A stretch of DNA of 64,000 bases from Clostridia bacterium (GTDB lineage: Bacteria > Bacillota > Clostridia > Oscillospirales > CAG-382). The notes under the pieces are model-generated. The model had not been told where the DNA came from, ran no database searches, and saw nothing but the letters and a program-made list of their open reading frames with translations. The position numbers and the translations under genes are program-made. Where the stretch lies: assembly GCA_017434845.1 (NCBI GenBank), contig JAFSGD010000023.1:1631-65630 (forward strand), given 5' to 3'. The stretch's first letter is position 1. Each line of letters starts with the position of its first letter. Shown here in pieces: positions 3,103 through 59,426 of this stretch.

Positions 3103-3978
3103 ATGAACGAGATCCTTGATTATTTTGAATATGTCGGGAATCAGTTTGTCGGCATCGGAGTAATCGATATTATCGACATTCTGTTGGTCGCGCTTTTGTT
3201 CTATTGGACCTTTAAGTTCGTTCGCGACCGCCGTGCAGGCAAGCTGCTTGTGGGCCTTGTGCTTCTCGTTGCCGTTTTGTTGCTTAGCGAACTGCTTGAA
3301 ATGCGTGCGCTGAATTTTATTCTCACAAATCTGTTCTCGATCGGTCTGATTGCGATAATCATAGTTTTCCAGCCCGAGCTTCGAAGCCTTCTTGAAAAGG
3401 TGGGCGGCGAATCGCTCAAGAATTTCAGAGGTAAGCTCGACAGCGACACCGCCGCAACCATTCGCTCGGCTATCGGCGAGATATGCGTTGCCGCCGAATC
3501 GCTTTCGGCAAGCAAAACCGGCGCACTTATCGTTTTCGAGCGCTCCACTAAGCTCGGCGATCATATCAGAACCGGCACCATCATCGATGCCGTAACCTCT
3601 TCGTTCCTGCTCGGCAATATTTTCTGGAACAAGGCTCCGCTTCACGACGGTGCGGTCATTATCCGTCAGGGCAGAGTTCACGCGGCGGGCTGCTTCCTTC
3701 CGCTTTCCACCAATAACGAAATCGTTAAAGAGCTTGGAACCCGCCACCGCGCCGCTATCGGAATGAGCGAAAACAGCGATGCCGTCGTGTTGGTCGTTTC
3801 GGAAGAAACGGGCACGATCTCGGTTGTTGTCGACGGCGTGCTTAAGCGCGGATTTACCCGACAAACACTTGAAGAATATCTGACTCCGCTTCTCATCGGC
3901 GACGATAAGAATATCGCAGGCAGAATGAAGGGCAAATTCTTCGGAAAGGGCGGCGATAAAAAGGATGAGCGCAAGTAA
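3103..3978 (+). CDS. cdaA: Diadenylate cyclase CdaA (membrane-anchored DAC domain)
   Basis: Three N-terminal hydrophobic helices are followed by DAC-domain motifs HDGAVII, GTRHRAAIG and VSEETG. Confidence 0.9.
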   Translation: MNEILDYFEYVGNQFVGIGVIDIIDILLVALLFYWTFKFVRDRRAGKLLVGLVLLVAVLLLSELLEMRALNFILTNLFSIGLIAIIIVFQPELRSLLEKVGGESLKNFRGKLDSDTAATIRSAIGEICVAAESLSASKTGALIVFERSTKLGDHIRTGTIIDAVTSSFLLGNIFWNKAPLHDGAVIIRQGRVHAAGCFLPLSTNNEIVKELGTRHRAAIGMSENSDAVVLVVSEETGTISVVVDGVLKRGFTRQTLEEYLTPLLIGDDKNIAGRMKGKFFGKGGDKKDERK

Positions 3979-29518: not shown

Positions 29519-29998
29519 ATGAGAACGGCAATCATTTCGGGCACCTTCGATCCCATCACTCATGGCCACATGGACGTTATAACCCGTGCGGCTATGCTTT
29601 TCGAAAAGGTCGTTGTTGCCGTTTCCTCAAATTCGGCAAAAAAAGGCTTTTTAACAAACGAGGCGCGCGTTAAGGCGGTTAAGGCCTCGGTTGCGAAGCT
29701 TAATAACGTTTCCGTTGAGCTTTGCGAGGGCCTGCTTGCCGATTTTTGCCTAAGATTTGAAAACCCCGTTATCGTTCGCGGCGCGCGAAGCGGAAGCGAT
29801 TTTGATTATGAGCGCAGTCTTTATATAATCAATAAATCGTTCGGCGTTCCCGAAACGATAGTTTTGCCCGCAAGCAGCGGCTTGGATCACATAAGCTCAA
29901 CCTATGCGCGCGAGCTTATGCGTTATAACAAAAGCCTCGAAAGCGCAATTCCCGACGAGGCTGTAAGAGTTATTAAAGAATATCTTGAAAATGATTGA
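29519..29998 (+). CDS. coaD: Phosphopantetheine adenylyltransferase
   Basis: GTFDPITHGH nucleotidyltransferase motif; 159 aa; conserved rsmD-coaD pairing. Confidence 0.93.
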   Translation: MRTAIISGTFDPITHGHMDVITRAAMLFEKVVVAVSSNSAKKGFLTNEARVKAVKASVAKLNNVSVELCEGLLADFCLRFENPVIVRGARSGSDFDYERSLYIINKSFGVPETIVLPASSGLDHISSTYARELMRYNKSLESAIPDEAVRVIKEYLEND

Positions 29999-31298
29999 TA
30001 TAAGAATAAAAAAGGCGTTGCTGAACTTTCAACGCGAGCCGTTAACCGCGCCCTTCGGCTTCAAGGGCAAATATTTAACAGAGCTTTGGCAAACCGTCGT
30101 TTATATCGAAACCGAAAACGGCGTAAGCGCCGCCTGCCCCGGAACCATATCGGTGCTTTGGTCGGATGCGAACGTTTTCGGTGAGCATTCGCCCGATGAA
30201 TCAAGCGCGCTCATGCGCGACGTTACCGCAAGGGCACTCGATATAATAAGAGGCGAAAGCTTTAAATATCCGAATGAGCTTATAAATTCGCTCGTTCCCG
30301 AGCTTAAAAAATATGCCGACGTCATTTGCGGCAGAAGCGTTGCCGAAACCTTTGTGCTGAATGCGCTTGTGGGGCTTGATTATGCGCTCTGGTCGGTTTT
30401 TGCAAAAGAGAACGGCCTTGCGGGCTTTGATGATATAATCCCCGAATTTGCGCGTTCTGCGCTCTCCTGCAGGCATGAGCGCTTGGCGCATATTCCGCTT
30501 GTAAGCTATGCCGTTGACGAAAACGGATTAAAGCGGCTTCTCGATAACGGAACCGCGCTGTTGAAAATAAAAATCGGCAAATCCTGCGGCGATGGGCTTA
30601 CCGAGCAAGAGGATATGCGCTCTATGCTCGAATGGGATAAAGCTCGCCTTACCGAGATACATTCGGTTGCAAGTCGATATACCACCGAGCTTTCCAAAAG
30701 CGGAAGGATCCGTTATTATCTCGATGCCAACGGAAGATACGATAGCCTGCAACGGCTTGAGGCTCTGCTCGACCATGCCGACAAGATCGGTGCGCTCGAC
30801 ATGATAGAGCTTATTGAAGAGCCGTTTGCGCCCGAAAAGGAAATTTTTGTGGGCGATCTGCCCGTAACGCTTAATGCCGACGAATCGGCGCATTCGCTTG
30901 CCGACGTTGAAAAAAGGCTTTCGCTCGGCTATAAAGCCGTTGCATTAAAGCCTATCGCAAAAACGATGTCGGTTTCGTTTGATATGGCGGCGGCAATTCA
31001 CAAGGCGGGCGGTGAATGCCTTTGTGCCGATTTGACCGTTGTGCCTCTGCTTGCCGAATGGAACAAGCAATTTGCCGCAAGAATCGGCGCGCTTTCGGGA
31101 ATGAATTGCGGCTGTATTGAAATTAACGGTAACCAAAACTATAAAAATTGGGAATCGCTCGGAAAGCTTCTTCCGAAAGGGCTTGAATTCAAGGCGGAAC
31201 ACAACGGTGCATTCGAGCTCGGACGTGATTATTACCAAACAGGCGGAATGCTTTTTGAAAATAACGGATATTGCGAATATTTCAAAGAAAGGTTTTGA
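29991..31298 (+). CDS. Enolase-superfamily enzyme (muconate-lactonizing/dipeptide-epimerase-like subgroup), substrate unknown
   Basis: KxK motif (LLKIKIGK), metal ligands in LDANGRY / IEEPF / NADESAH, and a second-strand Lys in ALKPIAK. The start is ATG 29991 or TTG 29985, and overlaps the coaD end. Confidence 0.6.
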   Translation: MIDIRIKKALLNFQREPLTAPFGFKGKYLTELWQTVVYIETENGVSAACPGTISVLWSDANVFGEHSPDESSALMRDVTARALDIIRGESFKYPNELINSLVPELKKYADVICGRSVAETFVLNALVGLDYALWSVFAKENGLAGFDDIIPEFARSALSCRHERLAHIPLVSYAVDENGLKRLLDNGTALLKIKIGKSCGDGLTEQEDMRSMLEWDKARLTEIHSVASRYTTELSKSGRIRYYLDANGRYDSLQRLEALLDHADKIGALDMIELIEEPFAPEKEIFVGDLPVTLNADESAHSLADVEKRLSLGYKAVALKPIAKTMSVSFDMAAAIHKAGGECLCADLTVVPLLAEWNKQFAARIGALSGMNCGCIEINGNQNYKNWESLGKLLPKGLEFKAEHNGAFELGRDYYQTGGMLFENNGYCEYFKERF

Positions 31299-31301
31299 AT
31301 T

Positions 31302-32288
31302 ATGAAGATTGCACTTATAATGAACCCCGGCACACGCAACATGGTTTTCAACCAAAAATGCCTTAAACGTCTTGAAAACAGCGGCGAGGTGGTTATTAAC
31401 GAAGGCGGAACCGATTTTGATTCGATTGCTTCGCTTATCAAGGATGCCGATGCCGTTGTTACCTCTTGGGGCAACAACCCTATCGACGAAAAATGCCTCG
31501 AGCTTTGTCCGAACCTTAAATTGCTTGTTCATGCCGCAGGAAGCGTTAAGCCCGTTGTTTCCGAAGCACTTTGGAAAAAGGGCGTTCGCGTTACCGCAAG
31601 CGCAAACGTTTTAAGCATGGGCGTTTCCGAAACCGCGCTCGGATTCACTATTGCCGCTTCGAAAAACTTCTTTGCCCACAACGAAAATATACATAACGGC
31701 GGCTGGGCAGAGGGAAAAGAAAACATCCGCGAGCTTTATGATCTTACGATCGGCGTTATCGGCGCAGGCTGGGCAGGCAGACATTATATCGAGCTTATGC
31801 AGGCTTTCGACGTTGATATCCTTCTATATGACCCGTTCGTTTCCGAAGAAAAGGCGGAAGCAATGGGTGCGAAGAAGGCAAGCTTGGAGGAGGTTTTAAA
31901 GGCAAGCGATATAATCTCTATACATGCACCTCAAATTCCCGAAACCTACCATATGTTCAACGCCGAAACCCTGGCGCTTATGAAAAAGGATGCGGTTCTT
32001 ATAAACACCGCACGCGGAACCATAATTGACGAAAAAGCGCTTTATGAGCACATGAAAGCAGGAAACCTTAAATATGCCTGCCTCGACGTTACCGACCCCG
32101 AGCCTCCCGCAGAGGATAACCCGCTTCGTACCCTTAAGAACTGCATTATGACACCGCATCTTGCAGGTCTTGCAAACAACGGCTTGAAAAAGATCGGTCA
32201 GCACGTTTGCGAAGAAATCGAATCGTTCCTTGCCGATTCCTCGCTTTCAACCGAGGTTACCGAAGAAATGCTTGCCAGAATGGCATAA
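31302..32288 (+). CDS. D-isomer-specific 2-hydroxyacid dehydrogenase family, NAD-binding
   Basis: GVIGAGWAGRH Rossmann motif, NTARG, and the catalytic His context TPHLAG. Confidence 0.8.
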   Translation: MKIALIMNPGTRNMVFNQKCLKRLENSGEVVINEGGTDFDSIASLIKDADAVVTSWGNNPIDEKCLELCPNLKLLVHAAGSVKPVVSEALWKKGVRVTASANVLSMGVSETALGFTIAASKNFFAHNENIHNGGWAEGKENIRELYDLTIGVIGAGWAGRHYIELMQAFDVDILLYDPFVSEEKAEAMGAKKASLEEVLKASDIISIHAPQIPETYHMFNAETLALMKKDAVLINTARGTIIDEKALYEHMKAGNLKYACLDVTDPEPPAEDNPLRTLKNCIMTPHLAGLANNGLKKIGQHVCEEIESFLADSSLSTEVTEEMLARMA

Positions 32289-32304
32289 AGAAAGGAAAGA
32301 TATC

Positions 32305-33141
32305 ATGAAAAAGATCATTGCATTTTCACTTGCAGCTCTTCTTTGCGTGGCTTTCGCCGTTTCTGCATCGGCAGATTACAGCATTGCCGAAAACGGCGAT
32401 GCCGTTTATGAAACCGCAGTAGGATACACCTTTACCATCAACGACATCAACGGCAAGATCGATGGCGAGGATGCAACCATTCTCACATCTGCTTCCGGCC
32501 TTGATAACTGCGGCGTTTGGGCTATTTGGTTCGTTGCCGAAAAGCTTTCAACCAACGTTTATGAAGCAAAAACCAACGGCGCAGGCATGGGCGGAACCAA
32601 GCCGAGCGTTGATCTCAAAAAGGATCAGATAATCGTTGTCGTTCATTCTTCGACCTCTAACCCCGACAGAGCCGGAGAATTTCCCAACTGGGAAGATAAA
32701 GTTGCCGCACTTGCCGTTAAAGCAGGCGATTGCCTTAAGCTCGAGGCGATAGATATTGCTTCCGGCACTTGCAACAACGGCAAAATGACCGTTATCACCA
32801 AAAAGGAAGCGGGCAATATCGGAGATGAGCCCGAAGAAAGCAGTTCTCCCGCTGAAGAAAGCTCCGAACCCGAGGTCAGCGAAGAACCCGAGGTCAGCAA
32901 AGAACCCGAAGTTAGCAAAGAGCCCGAGGCAGACGAAAGCTCTGAAGCCGAAGTAAGCTCCGAAGCGGTAGTCGAGACTTCTTCCGAGCCTGCCGAAACT
33001 TCTGAAGAGAGCGATTCCGATATCAAATCTTCGAATATTACCCGCGGCGGTATCGACGGCTGGATATGGCTTGTTATCGGCGTTGTCATCGGTGCGCTTG
33101 CGGTTGTTATAATCGTTGTTGTTCTTAAAAAGAAAAAATAA
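32305..33141 (+). CDS. Secreted, C-terminally membrane-anchored protein of unknown function (paralogue A, with acidic EPEVS linker)
   Basis: Signal peptide MKKIIAFSLAALLCVAFAVSASA, a roughly 190-aa domain, an acidic low-complexity linker, and a C-terminal TM helix plus KKKK. SD AAAGGAAAG precedes ATG 32305. Confidence 0.7.
   Translation: MKKIIAFSLAALLCVAFAVSASADYSIAENGDAVYETAVGYTFTINDINGKIDGEDATILTSASGLDNCGVWAIWFVAEKLSTNVYEAKTNGAGMGGTKPSVDLKKDQIIVVVHSSTSNPDRAGEFPNWEDKVAALAVKAGDCLKLEAIDIASGTCNNGKMTVITKKEAGNIGDEPEESSSPAEESSEPEVSEEPEVSKEPEVSKEPEADESSEAEVSSEAVVETSSEPAETSEESDSDIKSSNITRGGIDGWIWLVIGVVIGALAVVIIVVVLKKKK
32866..32937 (+). repeat. Four tandem 18-bp repeats encoding EPEVS(E/K)-type units
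   Basis: GAACCCGAGGTCAGCGAA / GAACCCGAGGTCAGCAAA / GAACCCGAAGTTAGCAAA / GAGCCCGAGGCAGACGAA. Confidence 0.85.
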
Positions 33142-33180
33142 GCATTTTGGCATAAAGACATAAAGAAAGGAAGGTTAACC

Positions 33181-33813
33181 ATGAAAAAACTTATTGCGTT
33201 GACTCTTGCAGCGATTCTTTGCGTTGCTTTCGGTGTTTCTGCATCGGCAGATTACTCCATTGCCGAGAACGGTGATGCCGTTTATGAAACCGCAGTAGGA
33301 TACACCTTTACCATCAACGACATCAACGGCAAGATCGAAGGTGAGGATGCGACCATTCTTACTTCCGCTTCGGGCCTCAATAACTGCAGCCCTTGGGTAG
33401 TCTGGTTCGTTGCCGAAAAGCGTTCGGACAACGTTTATGAAGCAGTAACCAACGGCACGTGGATGGAAGGAACCAAGCCGAAAGTTACTCTTAACAACGA
33501 TCAGATAATCGTTGTTATTCATTCCGCAAGCTCAAATCCCGACACTGCCGAATACTATCCCAACTGGGAGGATAGGGCTGTTGCGCTTGCAATCAAGGCA
33601 GGAGATTGGCTCAAACTCGAATCGATCGATATTGCTTCGGAAACCTGCGATAACGGCAAAATGACCGTTATAACCAAAGAGGAAGCCGACGAGCTTATTA
33701 CCGGCGACGGTATCGACAGCTGGGTCTGGATCGTTATCGGCGTTGCGATCGCCGCTATCGCGATCGTTGTATTTGTTGTTATCAAGGGTAAAAAGAAACA
33801 AACGGCTGAATAA
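33181..33813 (+). CDS. Secreted, C-terminally membrane-anchored protein of unknown function (paralogue B)
   Basis: Same signal peptide, domain and C-terminal TM architecture as 32305-33141 (MKKLIALTLAAILCVAFGVSASADYSIAENGDAVYETAVGYTFTINDINGKI...). It lacks the acidic linker. Confidence 0.7.
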   Translation: MKKLIALTLAAILCVAFGVSASADYSIAENGDAVYETAVGYTFTINDINGKIEGEDATILTSASGLNNCSPWVVWFVAEKRSDNVYEAVTNGTWMEGTKPKVTLNNDQIIVVIHSASSNPDTAEYYPNWEDRAVALAIKAGDWLKLESIDIASETCDNGKMTVITKEEADELITGDGIDSWVWIVIGVAIAAIAIVVFVVIKGKKKQTAE

Positions 33814-33824
33814 TAAAAAACACA

Positions 33825-33861
33825 AAAAGGATATGCTTTTCTTTGAAAGGCATATCCTTTT
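33825..33861. terminator. Bidirectional terminator between convergent genes
   Basis: A 12-bp perfect stem AAAAGGATATGC / GCATATCCTTTT with A/T runs on both sides. Confidence 0.75.
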
Positions 33862-33875
33862 GCTATATATAAGAT

Positions 33876-34097
33876 TTAAACCGCAGAAACGGTACCGTTA
33901 ACGATCTGTGCGATTACTGCGTTTATAACGTCTTCGGGTGAAGGCTCTTTTCCGTTTTGAGAAAGCTGTTTCCAAAACAGCTGTGCTTCGGGCGAAGGAT
34001 CGTTCATCGCGGCTCTGATCGCAATTTTGATCTGGTCTTCAACTTCGTAAGGGGTGGTTTTGTTTTCTTCTGCAATAGCTTTGTAAAGGTTTTTCAT
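33876..34097 (-). CDS. 73-aa protein resembling the distal half of the Spo0A C-terminal domain
   Basis: LYKAIAEENKTTPYEVEDQIKIAIRAAM...LF...KEPSPEDVINAVIAQI lines up with B. subtilis Spo0A [28 protein letters not shown]...LF...AKPTNSEFIAMVADKL. SD GGAGG is upstream. Confidence 0.55.
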   Translation of the reverse strand: MKNLYKAIAEENKTTPYEVEDQIKIAIRAAMNDPSPEAQLFWKQLSQNGKEPSPEDVINAVIAQIVNGTVSAV

Positions 34098-34145
34098 GAT
34101 TATCCTCCGACAATGAATATTGGTGTGTTTTTAACTCCGTGAGTT

Positions 34146-34170
34146 ATTATATCACGGCAATATTGTCGAA
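34146..34170 (-). promoter_or_regulatory. Candidate promoter (-10 TGaTATAAT) with a perfect Spo0A-box heptamer in the -25/-31 region
   Basis: Minus strand reads TTCGACA-12 nt-TATAAT. On the plus strand, TGTCGAA is at 34164-34170. No canonical -35 is present. Confidence 0.35.
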
Positions 34171-34230
34171 GAAACGCAAAGCGTGTCATTTAAACGAAAT
34201 AAAACTAAATTCAGGAAGATTTTTTTGATT

Positions 34231-34566
34231 TTATGGCTGAATATGCTTTGTATGTCGAATAAACACGTCAACGATATCATAAATCTTTTTTCTGTCATCG
34301 GAAGAAAGCTTTTCAAGCTTTTCGCCGAAAAGCGAATCCTTTACGGTATATCCAACGTCTACAACGTCATTTAAAACCATATCTGCGGATATTTGCAAAG
34401 CGTTAAGAATGGCAATCAGCGTTTCCAAAGAAGGAACCTTTTCGCCGCGCTCTATCATTCCGATATAATTTGCAGTCAGGTCTGCTTTTTCCGCAAGATC
34501 CTCCTGACGCATCTTTTTTGCGAGACGGTATTTTCTGATATTCTGTCCGATTGTATCAAGCCGCAT
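34231..34566 (-). CDS. XRE-family helix-turn-helix transcriptional regulator
   Basis: IGQNIRKYRLAKKMRQEDLAEKADLTANYIGMIERGEKVPSLETLIAILNAL; 111 aa. Confidence 0.85.
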   Translation of the reverse strand: MRLDTIGQNIRKYRLAKKMRQEDLAEKADLTANYIGMIERGEKVPSLETLIAILNALQISADMVLNDVVDVGYTVKDSLFGEKLEKLSSDDRKKIYDIVDVFIRHTKHIQP

Positions 34567-34576
34567 AATAAACCCT

Positions 34577-34603
34577 CCGATAGTGTGTGCCTATTACTAT
34601 CAG
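34577..34603. promoter_or_regulatory. Candidate operator: inverted repeat CCGATAGT-N11-ACTATCAG, with a third site ACTATCGG at 34634-34641
   Basis: GATAGT/ACTATC half-sites lie directly between the putative -10 (TATACT on the minus strand) and the SD of the XRE gene. Confidence 0.4.
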
Positions 34604-34657
34604 TATAGGTGATTGTTTTACTTAAATGAACAAACTATCGGTATTATAAGATTACTA

Positions 34658-35524
34658 TTAGGCATTATCTCGAAGCGCAACCGTGATTTTTACCGTAAGC
34701 TTATCATCTTGCTCATCCTTGCACCAATCGGCGTTAATTCCCGAGGCGGTAAGTATTCCAACCGCCTTATCGATAGTGTTGTAAAGAAAGCGAATGTCTT
34801 TTATCGCGCCCTTGACGCTTTTAACCTTCTTTTTTCTTTTTGGGGAAGGTTTGAAGGTTTTGTTGCTGTTTAAATGCAGATCAACGAGCCGTTCGGCATC
34901 GGGGGCGGAAAGATGGTTATTGATTATTTCAAGCATGATCGGTCGGCGCTCGCGTTCGCTTTCGATTCTTACGAGTGCGCGCGCATGGCGCTCGGAAAGA
35001 CCGTTTTCGGCGATCATAAGCCGTTCGCGCTCCGAAAGCCTTAACAGCCTGAGCTTGTTCGAAAGGGTCGATTGCGAAATCGAAAGCGTGCTCGCAAGCT
35101 CGGTTTGCGATTTTCCGCTAAGAAGCATAAGGTTTTGCATTGCCAACGCCTCTTCGAAAAAAGAAAGGTCGCTTCGCTGAAGATTTTCTATCAAAGCCAT
35201 CATTGCGCTTTCCTGGCGGTCGGCATCGTGAATTATACAGGGTATATGCGTTAACCCTGCCAGCCGCGCGGCGCGCCAGCGGCGCTCGCCTGCGATTATT
35301 TCATATTTGGCTTTTGGCTGAGGCATCGGAAAGGGAAGCGGTTCGATTCTTTTAACGGCAATAGGCTGAATGACGCCAAACTGCTTTATGCTTTCGCAAA
35401 GCGCGATCATTTCGGCTTCGTCAAAGCAACGCCGCGGCTGCATTGGGTTGGGCATAAGCTCGCCCAGGGGCAATAAAACGGTGTTTTCTTTTTTTGTCGG
35501 CTTAAAAATGCTTGATATGCTCAT
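34658..35524 (-). CDS. Orphan ParB-family protein of the Noc (nucleoid occlusion) type
   Basis: ParB N-domain with IIAGERRWRAARLAG, the HTH SQTELASTLSISQSTLSNKLRLLRL, LSERHARAL, and a Noc-like C-terminus DIRFLYNTIDKAVGILTASGINA. No parA/soj gene is adjacent. Confidence 0.75.
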   Translation of the reverse strand: MSISSIFKPTKKENTVLLPLGELMPNPMQPRRCFDEAEMIALCESIKQFGVIQPIAVKRIEPLPFPMPQPKAKYEIIAGERRWRAARLAGLTHIPCIIHDADRQESAMMALIENLQRSDLSFFEEALAMQNLMLLSGKSQTELASTLSISQSTLSNKLRLLRLSERERLMIAENGLSERHARALVRIESERERRPIMLEIINNHLSAPDAERLVDLHLNSNKTFKPSPKRKKKVKSVKGAIKDIRFLYNTIDKAVGILTASGINADWCKDEQDDKLTVKITVALRDNA

Positions 35525-35536
35525 GTTCCACCGCCT

Positions 35537-35574
35537 AAAAAAATAAGGATGTGCATATATGATAGCACATCCTT
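35537..35574 (-). terminator. Rho-independent terminator ending the nusA-infB-truB operon
   Basis: On the minus strand, a 10-bp stem AAGGATGTGC / GCACATCCTT is followed by ATTTTTTT. Confidence 0.8.
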
Positions 35575-35580
35575 AATGTC

Positions 35581-36498
35581 TTATTTTGTTGATTCGCGGT
35601 CGAAGAACAATTTCTTTTGACGGAAATATTTTATCCCGTCGCTTTCGGTTATTTCTCCAAGCGAATAAAAGCCGTTTTCGTCATAAATCCGAAACAGCTC
35701 GCCGACCTCGCCCTTAATTCCGCGAAGCTTTGAAAGCTTGATTTTTTCGCCGTGGAAATAAAGACGGTTAAAGAAGGGGTCGAGCCTTGCCTCGCGCAGA
35801 TGCATAAACATTTTTTCAACGGGAATAAGGTGTGAAAGAATCTCTTCCTTGCTCATGCCGTTTAAATCGTCGAAAACTATTGCATCACTTTCCTTGAAAA
35901 CGTCAACCTCGGTTCGCCTTAACGAGCACATAACTGCACCGCAGCCCAGCTTTTCGCCGATATCCGCGCAAAGAGTTCGAATATAAGTTCCGCGCGAGCA
36001 GGCAACGTCAAGATAAAACCCGTCGTCGCGCTCGATTGGGTTGCAAAGATAAATGCTAACCTTGCGCGCCTTTCGTTCAACGGTAACACCCTCTCGGGCA
36101 AGGTCGAGAAGCTTAATTCCTCCAACCTTAAGCGCAGAATACATCGGCGGTGTTTGCATTATCTCGCCCTCGAAGGATTTTGCAACAGAAGCAAATTCGG
36201 CAAAAGAGGGCAGTGAACCGCTGTGCTGAGTTAAAACGTTGCCGCTGATATCCTCGGTGTCGGTGGTTATTCCGAGCTTAATACCGGCAAAATAACGCTT
36301 GTCGTGGTCAACAAGATATTCGCTTGCTTTAACCGCACTGCCGATCATTATGGGCAGAATACCGCTTGCCATGGGGTCAAGCGTTCCGCAATGGCCTATC
36401 TTGCGCTCCTTTAAAAGATAGCGAAGCTTCGAAATGCAGTTGTGGCTGGTTATTCCGCTCGGCTTGTCAATAATTATAATTCCGCTGGGTGAGTTCAT
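35581..36498 (-). CDS. truB: tRNA pseudouridine(55) synthase TruB
   Basis: IIIDKPSGITSH and the catalytic-Asp motif GHCGTLDPMASG. Confidence 0.93.
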   Translation of the reverse strand: MNSPSGIIIIDKPSGITSHNCISKLRYLLKERKIGHCGTLDPMASGILPIMIGSAVKASEYLVDHDKRYFAGIKLGITTDTEDISGNVLTQHSGSLPSFAEFASVAKSFEGEIMQTPPMYSALKVGGIKLLDLAREGVTVERKARKVSIYLCNPIERDDGFYLDVACSRGTYIRTLCADIGEKLGCGAVMCSLRRTEVDVFKESDAIVFDDLNGMSKEEILSHLIPVEKMFMHLREARLDPFFNRLYFHGEKIKLSKLRGIKGEVGELFRIYDENGFYSLGEITESDGIKYFRQKKLFFDRESTK

Positions 36499-36499
36499 A

Positions 36500-37444
36500 T
36501 TAAAGCTCCGAAAATAACTTTCTAACCTCGGCTAAAGCATCCTCATAGCCGCAATCGAGATTAAAGCCCGCTGCGTGAAAATGTCCTCCGCCGCCATAGC
36601 GCTTTGCGAGTTCGGCAACGTCGATATCGGCGTTCGAGCGAAGCGAAACCTTAATGCTGTCGTTCTTCATTCGAATAACCGCCGAAGCGGCAACGCCGTT
36701 TATCTCGCGCGGAATGTGGTTGATGCAATCGAAATCGTTTTCGTCTGCGCCGCATTCCAAAACCTCTTCGGGCGAGATTCCAACCATGGCAAAACGGTTG
36801 CCGTTTAAAAGCTCTAAGTTGCGGTAGGCAACTCTTGTGAGCGCAACCTGTGCCGGCGTTTTGCATTCAAAAAGCCTGCGGTTTATTTCGGCAAAATCAA
36901 TTCCCGTTTCCAAAAGCTCGGCGGCAATGCGATGTGTGTCTGCCGTTGTTGCCGAATAACGGAATCCGCCGCTGTCAGAGCTTATCGCCGCATAAAGCGA
37001 GGTTGCAATATCGCGATCAACAGAAACGCCAAGCTCTTTTAAAAGAATGAAGATTATCTCGCCGCAGGCAATCCTTTCGCTCATGACCAAAAGGCGTTTT
37101 GTGTTGATATCGTTGGTTTTGTGGTGGTCTATCGAAAGCTCAAAACGTTTGTTTTTTGCTTTTCCAAGCGTTTTTGGGCCTGCAACGTCAACGCTTATCG
37201 GAACGAATGCGTCAAGGTTTTCGGGCTCGTTTTCGATAAACAGCGCGGGGTCGTACATAAACGAAAGCTTTTCGGGCACGCCGTCAACCGAAAAAACAAA
37301 AGCTTTTTTGCCAAGCGTGCGCAAGGCTTTTGCCAGCGCGGTCGCCGAGCCGACAGTGTCGCCGTCGGGCGAAGCGTGGGTATATATGAGGTAGCCGTCG
37401 CACCCCAAAAGGAACGCGGCGGCTTGTTTAACGGAAATTTCCAT
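36500..37444 (-). CDS. nrnA: DHH/DHHA1 phosphoesterase (NrnA-like oligoribonuclease / pAp phosphatase)
   Basis: HASPDGD, SIDHH and GGGGHFHAAG motifs. I prefer ATG 37444, which has an SD GAGGA, over TTG 37459. Confidence 0.82.
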   Translation of the reverse strand: MEISVKQAAAFLLGCDGYLIYTHASPDGDTVGSATALAKALRTLGKKAFVFSVDGVPEKLSFMYDPALFIENEPENLDAFVPISVDVAGPKTLGKAKNKRFELSIDHHKTNDINTKRLLVMSERIACGEIIFILLKELGVSVDRDIATSLYAAISSDSGGFRYSATTADTHRIAAELLETGIDFAEINRRLFECKTPAQVALTRVAYRNLELLNGNRFAMVGISPEEVLECGADENDFDCINHIPREINGVAASAVIRMKNDSIKVSLRSNADIDVAELAKRYGGGGHFHAAGFNLDCGYEDALAEVRKLFSEL

Positions 37445-37448
37445 TGTG

Positions 37449-37784
37449 TTATTCCTCAATGTCTTTAAGAATACGCGAGATGCTCATTGCGCGCTCGGTG
37501 TTGTTATCGCGAACGAAGGTCAGCTTGGGAGTGATTCGAAGGTTAAGCCTTTTTGCAAGCTCGCTTCTTATAAAGCCGCTTGCCGAAACAAGTCCCTTGT
37601 CGACGCCCTCGTCGTTGCCGAGAACGCTATAAAACACTCTTGCGGTTGAAAGGTCGGGGGAAACGCTTGCGCCCACAATGCTTACGAACGCGCCCGAAAC
37701 CCTCGGATCCTTTACCTCGCGGATGATAGCGGCGAGCTCGCCGCTGACCGCGTTGTTTAATTTATCCTGCCTGTGTCCGGCCAT
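37449..37784 (-). CDS. rbfA: Ribosome-binding factor A
   Basis: KH-like RbfA sequence (VKDPRV...VSPDLSTARVFYSV) directly downstream of infB. Confidence 0.9.
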   Translation of the reverse strand: MAGHRQDKLNNAVSGELAAIIREVKDPRVSGAFVSIVGASVSPDLSTARVFYSVLGNDEGVDKGLVSASGFIRSELAKRLNLRITPKLTFVRDNNTERAMSISRILKDIEE

Positions 37785-43274: not shown

Positions 43275-43302
43275 ATTATACTCTTTTTGCGATTTATGTC
43301 AA
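43275..43302 (-). promoter_or_regulatory. Sigma-A promoter for the NYN gene (TTGACA-16-TATAAT)
   Basis: On the minus strand, TTGACA (43302-43297) overlaps the sigE stop. TATAAT is at 43280-43275. Confidence 0.6.
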
Positions 43303-44030
43303 TAGTTTTGGCTTTTTAGCGATTCCTTAAGCTGAACGATAATTTTCTTTTCAAGCCTTGAAATATAGCTTTGCGATATCCCCAAAATATCGGCAACCTC
43401 CTTTTGTGTAAGCTCTCTTCCGCCTCGGTTTATGCCGTAGCGAAGCTCGATTATTTCTCGGTCGCGCTTGCAAAGGGTTGAAATTGCGCGCAAGATCATC
43501 TTTCGCTCTTCGCTTTCCTCTATGCTTTTATAAACATAGTCGCTTTCGGTGCCGAGAACGTCGCAAAGCAAAAGCTCGTTGCCGTCGTAATCGATGTTCA
43601 GAGGTTCATCAAGCGAAAGCTCGCTTCGTGTTCCCGTGTTTTTGCGAAGAAACATCAATATTTCGTTTTCTATACAGCGCGAGGCATAGGTGGCAAGCTT
43701 TATCTGCTTGTCGGCGCGAAAGGTGTTAATTGCCTTTATAAGCCCTATCGTTCCTATCGAAACAAGGTCTTCAATACCAACCGAGCTACTTTCGAACTTG
43801 CGCGCAATATAAACCACAAGCCTTAAATTATGCTCGATAAGTCTTTTCTTCGCGCTGTCGTCGTGCTCGATAACGGCTATAAGCTCGGCTTCCTCTTCCT
43901 TGGGCAAAGGGGGCGGAAGCGTTTGCGGGCCGTTTATATAAAACAGCTCGTCGCCGATACCCAAAACCTCCTTGATCCAATGTATAACCGGAACGTACAA
44001 TTTTGTCATTAATGCCTCTCCTTTTTTCAT
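43299..44030 (-). CDS. sigE: Sporulation sigma factor pro-sigma-E
   Basis: Near-colinear with B. subtilis SigE: pro-sequence, then [53 protein letters not shown]. It lies directly after spoIIGA. Confidence 0.93.
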
Positions 44031-44830
44031 AGCAAGCTTGTCGGGATAATTCCGTCATAGCCCGAATAGCTTTTGTTTTGTGTGTCGATGCCGATATATG
44101 CGTCGATAATATGCGGCTTTTGCGCAAGCCCGCCAAGCTCTATTTTGTCGGGGCGAAACCCCAAAAAGCAGGCGCTTCCCGCGCTTGTGCTGAACGGAAT
44201 TGCGCGTATGGGGTGGGGAAACAGCTCGCTCTCGGGCGAATCGTAGGGCGGCGGAAGCGAAGCCGAGCTGACTATTATAACGGGAAGCGAAGAGAAGGGC
44301 TCGGTAACGAGATTTCCGCTGTCGGCAAGCAGATTAAGCGAAAAACGGTTTCCGTTCGCAAAAATGCGGATGCTTGCGGTTTTTGTGTGAATCTTTTTTC
44401 GACATATCAGTCCGTAGGCAAGCGCAATAAACGCCGAAAACACGCAGATGATGCAGAATGACAACGCCGTTATGCTGTCGGAACGTGCCGAAAGGCTGTA
44501 TGCCGCGGTTATAAGCCCGCCGAGCAGAGCAGCAGAGACCATAAAAGTTGCCCAAAGCAAAAGCAGCTTTTTTATGCCGCGCTTGCCGAACGCAATAAAG
44601 ACCATTAAAAAAGCAAAGGCAAGGTTGATGGGAAGCGAAAGCAACGTCGGAAGAATTATAAGATAGGGCAAAAATGAATACAGTCCGCCCAACACGGCGC
44701 TTATAAGCAACCGCAAAACCCTGCCGCCGCAATTCAAAACCCTGCCCGCGATGAAAAGACAGAGATAATCGAGCGAAAAGTTTATCAAAAACAGAATATC
44801 GGAATAAATAACCGTTTCCTCGGCATACAT
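44027..44830 (-). CDS. spoIIGA: Sigma-E processing aspartic peptidase SpoIIGA
   Basis: N-terminal TM helices ([15 protein letters not shown]...) and the catalytic motif [13 protein letters not shown] prefer ATG 44830, which has an SD GAGGTG, over GTG 44839. Confidence 0.88.
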
Positions 44831-44855
44831 AGAAAACACCCACCTCGCAAGAATG

Positions 44856-59396: not shown

Positions 59397-59426
59397 AAGC
59401 CCGAGGAAAGCGCTTTCCTCGGGCTT
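59397..59426. terminator. Bidirectional terminator between convergent genes
   Basis: A perfect 15-bp palindrome arm pair AAGCCCGAGGAAAGC / GCTTTCCTCGGGCTT. Confidence 0.8.

Follow-up and report, generated by a model that had tools for sequence, protein, structure and literature searches.

The locus described here follows truB in a stretch of 64,000 nucleotides (nt) from a Clostridia bacterium genome (assembly GCA_017434845.1, contig JAFSGD010000023.1), referred to below as the window. It consists of three minus-strand genes, which encode a Noc-type ParB-family CTPase of 288 amino acids (aa) (noc), an XRE-family regulator of 111 aa and a 73-aa relative of part of the Spo0A effector domain (the mini-Spo0A_C or mini gene). 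An earlier note on this DNA had treated the three as a single accessory module. We find that noc is a vertically inherited lineage gene tied to truB and that the XRE and mini genes are later additions. The locus is very probably a composite of two unrelated units, a lineage Noc gene and a mobile-derived regulator pair; the complete explanation, in which each unit is also given a mechanism, is one that we favor with less assurance and still regard as reasonably probable.

The gene order of relatives carries most of this argument. Exact-protein look-ups of the ParB paralogue and its homologues (56-77% identity) gave eight species-level lineages, and the comparison covers the contigs around truB. 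In all eight lineages noc comes directly after truB and the housekeeping gene order is the same; the truB-noc order is kept even on contigs L098 and L099 (handles of this kind are our own), where the downstream flank is wholly different. The XRE and mini genes are both missing from the five more distant lineages (L007, L008, L009/L010, L098 and L099; 57-66% ParB identity to the window protein), the two closest lineages (L091 and L092-94) have the mini gene and have lost the XRE gene, and only the window species has both genes together at noc. The same three genes in all relatives, an outcome that the earlier note had said would, together with an origin-proximal noc-soj-spo0J, mark an ordinary conserved locus, were therefore not seen among the lineages examined. 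Since the truB-noc order is held in all eight lineages we do not regard noc as an accessory gene or a mobile remnant, and since noc occurs alone (five lineages) or with the mini gene only (two lineages) the three genes do not form one module. The ratio of non-synonymous to synonymous substitution rates (dN/dS) of noc is about 0.1.

A ParB-type DNA binder and two regulators acquired together as one co-functional module would account for three adjacent genes on the same strand between two terminators. Besides the lineages in which noc lacks one or both partners, this is contradicted by XRE-mini pairs on contigs that resemble integrative and conjugative elements (ICEs) and carry no ParB at all, by the different GC content of the parts and by a separate promoter-like region for each small gene. 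We consider joint acquisition very improbable. The features of the locus are listed below.

36498..35581, minus strand: truB, the final housekeeping gene of its cluster (TIGR00431 TruB, 225.8 bits, cut-off 151)
35574..35537, minus strand: truB-noc intrinsic-terminator hairpin (fold -18.1 kcal/mol, z -4.4)
35524..34658, minus strand: noc, Noc-type ParB-family CTPase gene, 288 aa (ParB_N and HTH_ParB matches)
34657..34567, minus strand: XRE promoter/leader, with an inverted repeat and a promoter-like match at 34593-34565
34566..34231, minus strand: XRE-family regulator gene, 111 aa (HTH_3 match)
34253..34259, minus strand: distal candidate 0A box TTCGACA, within the XRE 3' end and 162 nt upstream of the 73-aa gene
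34170..34146, minus strand: promoter of the 73-aa gene (TTCGACA at 34170-34164, a 12-nt spacer with TG, TATAAT at 34151-34146)
34097..33876, minus strand: mini-Spo0A_C gene, 73 aa (Spo0A_C, PF08769, match)
33861..33825, both strands: bidirectional terminator hairpin common to the 73-aa gene and a convergent 210-aa gene (z -5.1 on the minus and -5.8 on the plus strand)

The housekeeping cluster that ends at truB reads rimP-nusA-ylxR-L7Ae-infB-rbfA-nrnA-truB, and the three open reading frames (ORFs) downstream of it lie where the earlier note had placed them. Its domain assignments agree with hidden Markov model matches to ParB_N (8.7e-28), HTH_ParB (8.6e-24), HTH_3 (3.5e-16) and Spo0A_C (33.1 bits), and both of its terminator hairpins are real; a consensus terminator scanner called neither, probably because the loops exceed its 8-nt limit. 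The AT-rich block that it described is confined to the XRE and mini genes: a GC content of 0.36-0.39 is limited to 33800-34600, the flanks are at about 0.48, and the ParB gene, at 0.44-0.51, matches the flanks. As that note had also stated, there is no integrase, and neither is there a ParA or a second ParB, among the genes called in about 17 kb around the locus. An Rfam scan of 33000-37000 gave nothing credible.

The Noc-type gene behind truB

Judged by its sequence, the 288-aa protein is a member of the Noc clade. The CTP motifs GERRWRA (residues 79-85) and ENLQR (113-117) are invariant in 10 of 10 family members, and the top matches among solved structures are Noc (7ng0, 7nfu and 7ol9, 130-137 bits), with B. 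subtilis Spo0J at 117 bits. Four residues set specificity for parS versus the Noc-binding site (NBS), those of Noc being Q173, K179, K184 and R201 in Caulobacter numbering, and K or R is permissive at positions 179 and 184 of the NBS signature (Jalal et al., PMC7383237). The corresponding residues here are Q151, K157, R162 and R179; Q151, K157 and R179 are invariant in the 10 members and R162 nearly so (QKRR in nine, QKKR in one). These residues fit the Noc signature QK(K/R)R and therefore place the protein, as far as the signature can tell, among those with NBS specificity.

A neighbor-joining tree, built without bootstrap values from 119 ParB-family proteins of the retrieved loci, is consistent with this placement. 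In it the truB-linked proteins form a single clade that lies within the gidB-linked clostridial Noc proteins, their neighbors coming from Ruminococcus, Eubacterium and Acutalibacteraceae metagenome-assembled genomes. Every member of the enclosing clade has Q-K-x-R, whereas the second ParB of noc-soj-spo0J loci has R at the first position in all cases and G at the fourth in almost all. The nearest outgroups among the matches listed from a genome-collection scan with the ParB family alignment, all at 45% identity or less, are gidB-linked or lie within noc-soj-spo0J loci. An origin cluster gidB-noc-soj-spo0J has been inferred for the Firmicutes ancestor (Garcia et al., PMC8136486). Noc is known from the gidA-gidB-noc-soj-spo0J origin cluster, which is considered to be strongly conserved in Firmicutes, and the gene described here sits instead after truB in eight lineages.

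Several observations weigh against equating the protein with Noc. The Noc assignment made by the earlier note is borne out by a full-length alignment to TIGR04285, which covers positions 5-253 of 255 and includes the Noc-like C-terminus, but the score of 247.3 bits is under the 315-bit cut-off. The N-terminus is about 15 residues shorter than that of B. subtilis Noc, and its hydrophobic moment is 0.21-0.65, as compared with 0.60 for Noc and a background 90th percentile of 0.58. The placement in the tree lacks bootstrap support values. Finally, no NBS or parS was found at up to three mismatches in the 64-kb window or in about 160 kb of lineage DNA, a null result that is uninformative at the B. 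subtilis NBS density of about one site per 57 kb. Two perfect 16-bp palindromes do occur in the window, at 37729-37744 (GCGGCGAGCTCGCCGC) and 59404-59419 (AGGAAAGCGCTTTCCT), and neither has any likeness to NBS or parS.

The same low score, together with the PGAP label 'ParB/RepB/Spo0J family partition protein', could be cited in favor of a ParB/Spo0J centromere protein that binds parS and no longer has its ParA. We think this most improbable given that the protein has Q and R where the R173 and G201 of parS binders are expected, is nested within the Noc clade and has a Noc-type C-terminus, and that neither a parS nor a ParA was found around the locus. One ParA did turn up elsewhere: metagenome contig L005 (1-760) carries a plasmid-type ParA fragment beside a 65-aa ORF, in unrelated DNA joined in the middle of nrnA. 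We rejected it as a partner of noc and take the contig to be, most likely, an assembly chimera because the join falls at a short shared k-mer (CTGACAGCGGCGGATTC) with unrelated sequence upstream.

We favor the view that the 288-aa protein is a functional Noc homologue, and think it probable. With the Noc proteins of B. subtilis and Geobacillus (TIGR04285; 7ol9, 7nfu, 7ng0, 6y93) it shares the CTP motifs, the Q-K-(K/R)-R residues, the C-terminal domain and the clade. It differs from them in its identity of only about 40%, its sub-cut-off score, a shorter N-terminus in which a membrane-targeting helix is not clear, nine additional residues within EPLPFPMPQPKAK ahead of the GERR box, and a gene that lies after truB behind a terminator rather than in the gidB-noc-soj-spo0J origin cluster. 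A 10-aa amphipathic helix makes Noc a membrane tether (PMC8429893). The truB-linked family conserves an N-terminal motif of its own, MDIxxxLKxxKKEK, and membrane tethering of DNA by the 288-aa protein is uncertain. The truB-linked noc is thus a positional and sequence variant of the known Noc family and is new as such.

With regard to noc expression, the earlier note had remarked that the space after the truB terminator is too small for a conventional promoter, and indeed the noc ATG lies 12 nt past the T-tract. The window hairpin has an 11-bp stem and a 10-nt loop and is followed by seven U. Between truB and noc, each of the eight species has a hairpin followed by a T-rich tract; three different stem sequences occur, and 8 of 13 base pairs carry compensatory changes. 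The T-tract is weak in L091 and L092. Where the 5' arm meets the loop, the window sequence is TGCTATCAT, which resembles an extended -10 element, and in all eight species this junction has the form TGnTA(T/A/C)nAT/TT with (A/T)AGACA 11-12 nt before it. This extended -10-like motif may be a chance occurrence in an AT-rich loop or may represent a promoter embedded in the terminator. A geometry of the form (TTC/A)GACA-11/12 nt-TG-n-TAnnAT is shared by the window at 35545-35580 and 34146-34170, by L095 at 3320-3345 and by the hairpin of the eight species; a sigma-70 -35/-10 pair would need a longer spacing. The simplest view would be that of a leaky terminator that lowers expression from the translation genes to noc.

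The XRE-mini cassette

The idea of a mobile remnant, which the earlier note had raised for the whole locus, fails for noc and fares better for the other two genes. A mobile origin of the XRE-mini pair is supported because its GC content is low, because it is missing in five distant relatives and because homologous pairs lie on ICE-like contigs; we accordingly describe it as a two-gene regulatory cassette of mobile-element origin. Precedent for such a location comes from the reported enrichment of PF08769 on mobile elements of gut Firmicutes (bioRxiv 10.1101/214213).

Elsewhere the pair has the layout of an XRE gene, a gap of about 130-160 nt and then the small gene. Two GenBank 'UNVERIFIED Bacteriophage sp.' virome scaffolds carry it: MT835621.1 (L095), with an XRE 67% and a small protein 46% identical to those of the window, and MT837604.1 (L096), at 33% and 37%, respectively. 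Their gene content includes CHAP/lysozyme, sortase, type I restriction-modification, integrase, DNA methylase, SpoVG-like, pilin and prepilin-peptidase genes, and no phage structural genes are evident in the parts of the two scaffolds read, so that, from the translations, the scaffolds may derive from an ICE and not from a phage. The integrase on these scaffolds lies between hsdS genes. A metagenome scan returned 80 loci, in which the XRE gene was 157 nt upstream of the mini gene in 67 of the 78 with enough upstream sequence, and in a third subfamily a homologous XRE (38% identical) is divergently encoded.

Two points weigh against a mobile origin or limit the support for it. The 67 metagenome loci belong to just two related subfamilies, and the evidence therefore amounts to about four independent lineages. 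In addition, an integrase, an att site and transfer or structural genes were not seen around the locus. A target-site duplication, suggested by a terminator arm shared between the two ends (AAGGATGTGC versus AAGGATATGC), was considered and rejected because the truB hairpin exists in relatives without the cassette, and because the start of the cassette lies past noc and the distal terminator is not the same in all strains and species.

The XRE protein comprises an N-terminal HTH_3 domain (3.5e-16; 59.4 bits, threshold 23) and a C-terminal helical extension. In length and architecture it is similar to RstR and CapH, XRE repressors that have C-terminal oligomerisation helices, with a full-length alignment to each that stays below threshold (RstR, NF041951, 58.5 bits against a cut-off of 80; CapH, PDLC04142, 52 bits). 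It differs from them in its setting: there is no CTX-phage context, no CapP-like protease gene was seen nearby, and its partner is a mini-Spo0A_C. The XRE leader contains an inverted repeat, CCGATAGT...ACTATCGG, as well as stretches that the window has in common with the ICE-like homologue MT835621, namely CCTATACTGATAGTAATAGGCACACACTA and CCTATACT...ACACACTA...GGAGG.

In the window lineage the XRE gene is decaying and now dispensable. Sister species keep just its last ~35 nt, immediately past the noc stop codon, and in one strain whose noc is 100% identical, 120 bp bordered by a CGGCGAAAAG repeat have been cleanly deleted in frame, with loss of part of the helix-turn-helix (HTH). The mini gene has a different history. 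Its synonymous divergence (dS) between L091 (4661-4882) and L092 (8037-8258) is 0.08, against 0.87 for noc and 0.46 for truB, and within the window species its 3' half has been replaced in one strain with an identical noc. Because its dS is so far under that of the flanking genes and its 3' half differs between strains, these comparisons suggest recent lateral exchange of the mini gene between lineages.

The cassette lies at a junction, convergent with the coaD/rsmD/uvrC side, whose content differs from species to species. This noc-coaD hot spot spans 29985-34657 in the window, 8862-9143 in L007, 8868-9678 in L008 and 8856-12086 in L009, and holds anything from one 78-aa ORF to six genes; the six-gene content is XRE, mini-Spo0A_C, two surface-protein paralogues, a 2-hydroxyacid dehydrogenase and a 437-aa protein of no assigned function. 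The surface-protein genes are in tandem on the plus strand (32230-33141, 303 aa; 33181-33813, 210 aa), and their products are 74-78% identical over ~170-180 N-terminal residues. Both have a signal-peptide-like start and a C-terminal hydrophobic anchor, with an acidic EPEVS-type repeat in the longer one, and no Pfam family was found for either. The 210-aa copy is missing from strain L002; in relatives there is either a single copy, 255-278 aa long, or none.

The mini protein and its candidate 0A boxes

The 73-aa protein had been described in the earlier note as equivalent to only the last helices of Spo0A. Our modeling gives it more than that: it corresponds to the HTH and the two helices that end the Spo0A effector domain, and is without the receiver and without the first two domain helices. 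The match to PF08769 scores 33.1 bits against a cut-off of 25 and covers profile positions 38-103 of 104, a partial domain, and the full Spo0A model TIGR02875 scores 17.4 bits against a cut-off of 200, at positions 190-254 of 262 only. A phmmer search of the Protein Data Bank (PDB) with the single 73-aa sequence gave no match and only the family profile reached Spo0A: built from 54 members, it matched 1fc3 and 1lq1 at E values of 2e-7 and 7e-7 over residues 50-114 of 120. Consistent with these matches, the AlphaFold2 model has four helices (pLDDT 90.5), and its top Foldseek matches in the PDB are Spo0A-C chains (TMq 0.63-0.70, root-mean-square deviation 2.2-2.5 A).

On sequence grounds the protein is one of an uncharacterised family of small, free-standing and for the most part acidic proteins. 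In an exhaustive HMMER search this family comprised 149 clusters at 50% identity, almost all of them 65-115 aa long; the few long matches are short repeated stretches only, and none is as long as full Spo0A. The isoelectric point is 4.7 for the 73-aa protein and 5.4 as the family median, as compared with 9.9 for the same stretch of Spo0A, and the recognition helix, S-R-V-E-R-A-I-R-H in Spo0A, has the family consensus p-e-e-V-e-e-e-I-k-k. Relative to the Spo0A effector domain (PF08769; 1fc3, 1lq1), then, there is homology to helices C-F (HTH, sigma-A-contact helix, C-terminal helix), while the differences are the missing receiver and helices A-B, an acidic rather than basic character, base-contact positions that are not conserved, and a stand-alone gene that is typically beside an XRE gene on mobile elements. 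Neither PHROG nor PADLOC has a family that matches the 73-aa protein, and no plasmid match was obtained; its only phage matches are the UNVERIFIED virome scaffolds, and viral-contig scans with two members of the mini family gave no match.

The restriction of the match to Spo0A_C positions 38-103 might suggest a decaying spo0A fragment, a pseudogene remnant. We find this hardly credible in view of the 149 clusters of similarly short stand-alone proteins, a dN/dS of 0.18-0.28, which indicates purifying selection, the gene's own conserved promoter and ribosome-binding site, and a confidently predicted four-helix fold.

The promoter region of the mini gene is of particular interest with regard to its regulation. 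The heptamer TTCGACA, the complement of the Spo0A box TGTCGAA (the 0A box), is found twice without mismatch upstream of the gene, at distances of 73 and 162 nt. The proximal copy is followed, after exactly 12 nt, by an extended -10 element (TGATATAAT). A role for these motifs in mini-gene expression is suggested by the following observations: (i) a 32-nt promoter stretch has two differences across the window, L091 and L092, as compared with ~60% difference at coding synonymous sites; (ii) both TTCGACA copies and the promoter are kept in L091 and L092 despite the loss of XRE; (iii) MT835621 has ATCGACA-N13-TTCGACA-N12-TATAAC, with TG before the -10 hexamer, which reproduces the window geometry in otherwise unalignable DNA; (iv) MT837604 has two tandem boxes in 10-bp register (TTCGACAgagTTCGACG) and (v) L129, of the third subfamily, has TGTCGAA as part of an inverted repeat between the mini gene and its divergent XRE gene.

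That Spo0A~P binds these boxes and controls the mini gene is a proposition to which we give slightly less than even chances. Pointing the other way are the facts that the TTCGACA motif was noticed post hoc, that its link to Spo0A is a match of sequence, and that TGTCGAA is not enriched across the window (10 found, 10.25 expected); with the motif at background level window-wide, any 0A-box signal must be local. As for the host, spoIIGA-sigE is located in the window at 43299-44839 on the minus strand, 8 kb away and upstream of the NYN-rimP-nusA cluster. The sigE match (NF006158) scores 341.9 bits, above the cut-off of 339, spoIIGA scores 113 bits, below its cut-off, and a sigma gene is at the same position in relatives. 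The presence of spoIIGA-sigE puts the host in a sporulating lineage, and it presumably carries Spo0A.

Two other readings of the boxes were weighed. In the first, TTCGACA would be an operator half-site of the partner XRE, unrelated to Spo0A, and the pair an ordinary repressor/target switch of a mobile element. An XRE gene does accompany the mini gene in all four lineages. On the other hand, the boxes and promoter are conserved in L091/L092, where XRE has been lost, the repeat upstream of XRE itself is GATAGT/ACTATC, unlike TTCGACA, and the boxes are direct repeats rather than palindromes. We regard this as improbable. In the second, the mini protein would itself bind the boxes, as a minimal autoregulated Spo0A-type HTH that competes with or replaces Spo0A. 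It retains the Spo0A HTH, and boxes occur upstream of its own gene in four lineages, in one case as a tandem at the 10-bp register that Spo0A-C dimers use (the 1lq1 binding mode). However, in the family consensus most of the recognition-helix positions are either acidic or variable, and the protein as a whole is acidic and lacks the first two domain helices; we think this reading unlikely.

Because the mini protein is acidic and has lost the basic residues of the recognition helix, action through protein contacts is to our minds more probable than binding to 0A boxes. Even so, we put it forward tentatively, as something rather less than likely, and a point that counts against giving it more weight is that such a role is purely inferential. 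Our preferred reading of the promoter remains control by host Spo0A~P.

Mechanism and wider significance

A plausible scenario combining the two units begins with noc, which is now fixed at the 3' end of the nusA-infB-rbfA-nrnA-truB cluster and would have moved there from an ancestral gidB-noc(-soj-spo0J) position. Its transcripts would stem from incomplete termination at the conserved truB terminator, a step-down from the translation genes, and/or from the extended -10 element inside the truB-noc hairpin. Its product would load at NBS-like 16-bp sites, close as a CTP-dependent clamp and spread as Noc does. The cassette would have landed between noc and the convergent coaD-side genes in the ancestor of the window and sister species, after which XRE was lost or internally deleted and the mini gene and its promoter continued to be held by selection. 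Host Spo0A~P at the candidate 0A boxes beside the extended -10 promoter would then control the mini gene, and the acidic mini protein would work through protein contacts, possibly by mimicking Spo0A surfaces towards sigma-A, Spo0A or XRE.

Taken further, the mini protein could be a chromosomally fixed member of a family of acidic mimics of the Spo0A effector domain carried by mobile elements, with Spo0A~P switching the gene on or off through the 0A box-N12-extended -10 promoter, the protein feeding back on Spo0A-dependent transcription, and the geometry of the truB-noc hairpin placing noc under related control. We consider this extended scheme a long shot. There is precedent for mobile elements reading Spo0A~P through 0A boxes, in that phage phi29 carries such boxes. 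Neither phi29 nor ICEBs1, whose DevI is another example of a mobile element of a spore former interfering with entry into sporulation, uses an effector like the one considered here: theirs are unrelated proteins, whereas the candidate in the window is a truncated Spo0A homologue, encoded by a gene fixed in the chromosome without the remainder of an element. DevI acts on Spo0A-controlled development (PMC8032392).

We found no functional studies of Spo0A_C-only proteins in the literature. The occurrence of the domain family on mobile elements is already known; what is new, as far as we have found, is the partner of the cassette, its promoter architecture and its retention in a chromosome. A new kind of system is not demonstrated by these data.

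The truB-linked lineage offers a natural test of whether chromosomal position and expression coupling are important for Noc, and also of the role of a Noc with a truncated N-terminus. With regard to the cassette, if the mimicry scheme is true, the mimics would occupy the protein-contact surfaces of Spo0A, and ICEs of gut spore formers, together with the host, would tune entry into sporulation. If confirmed, this would give mobile elements a new way to read or manipulate the sporulation decision of gut anaerobes.

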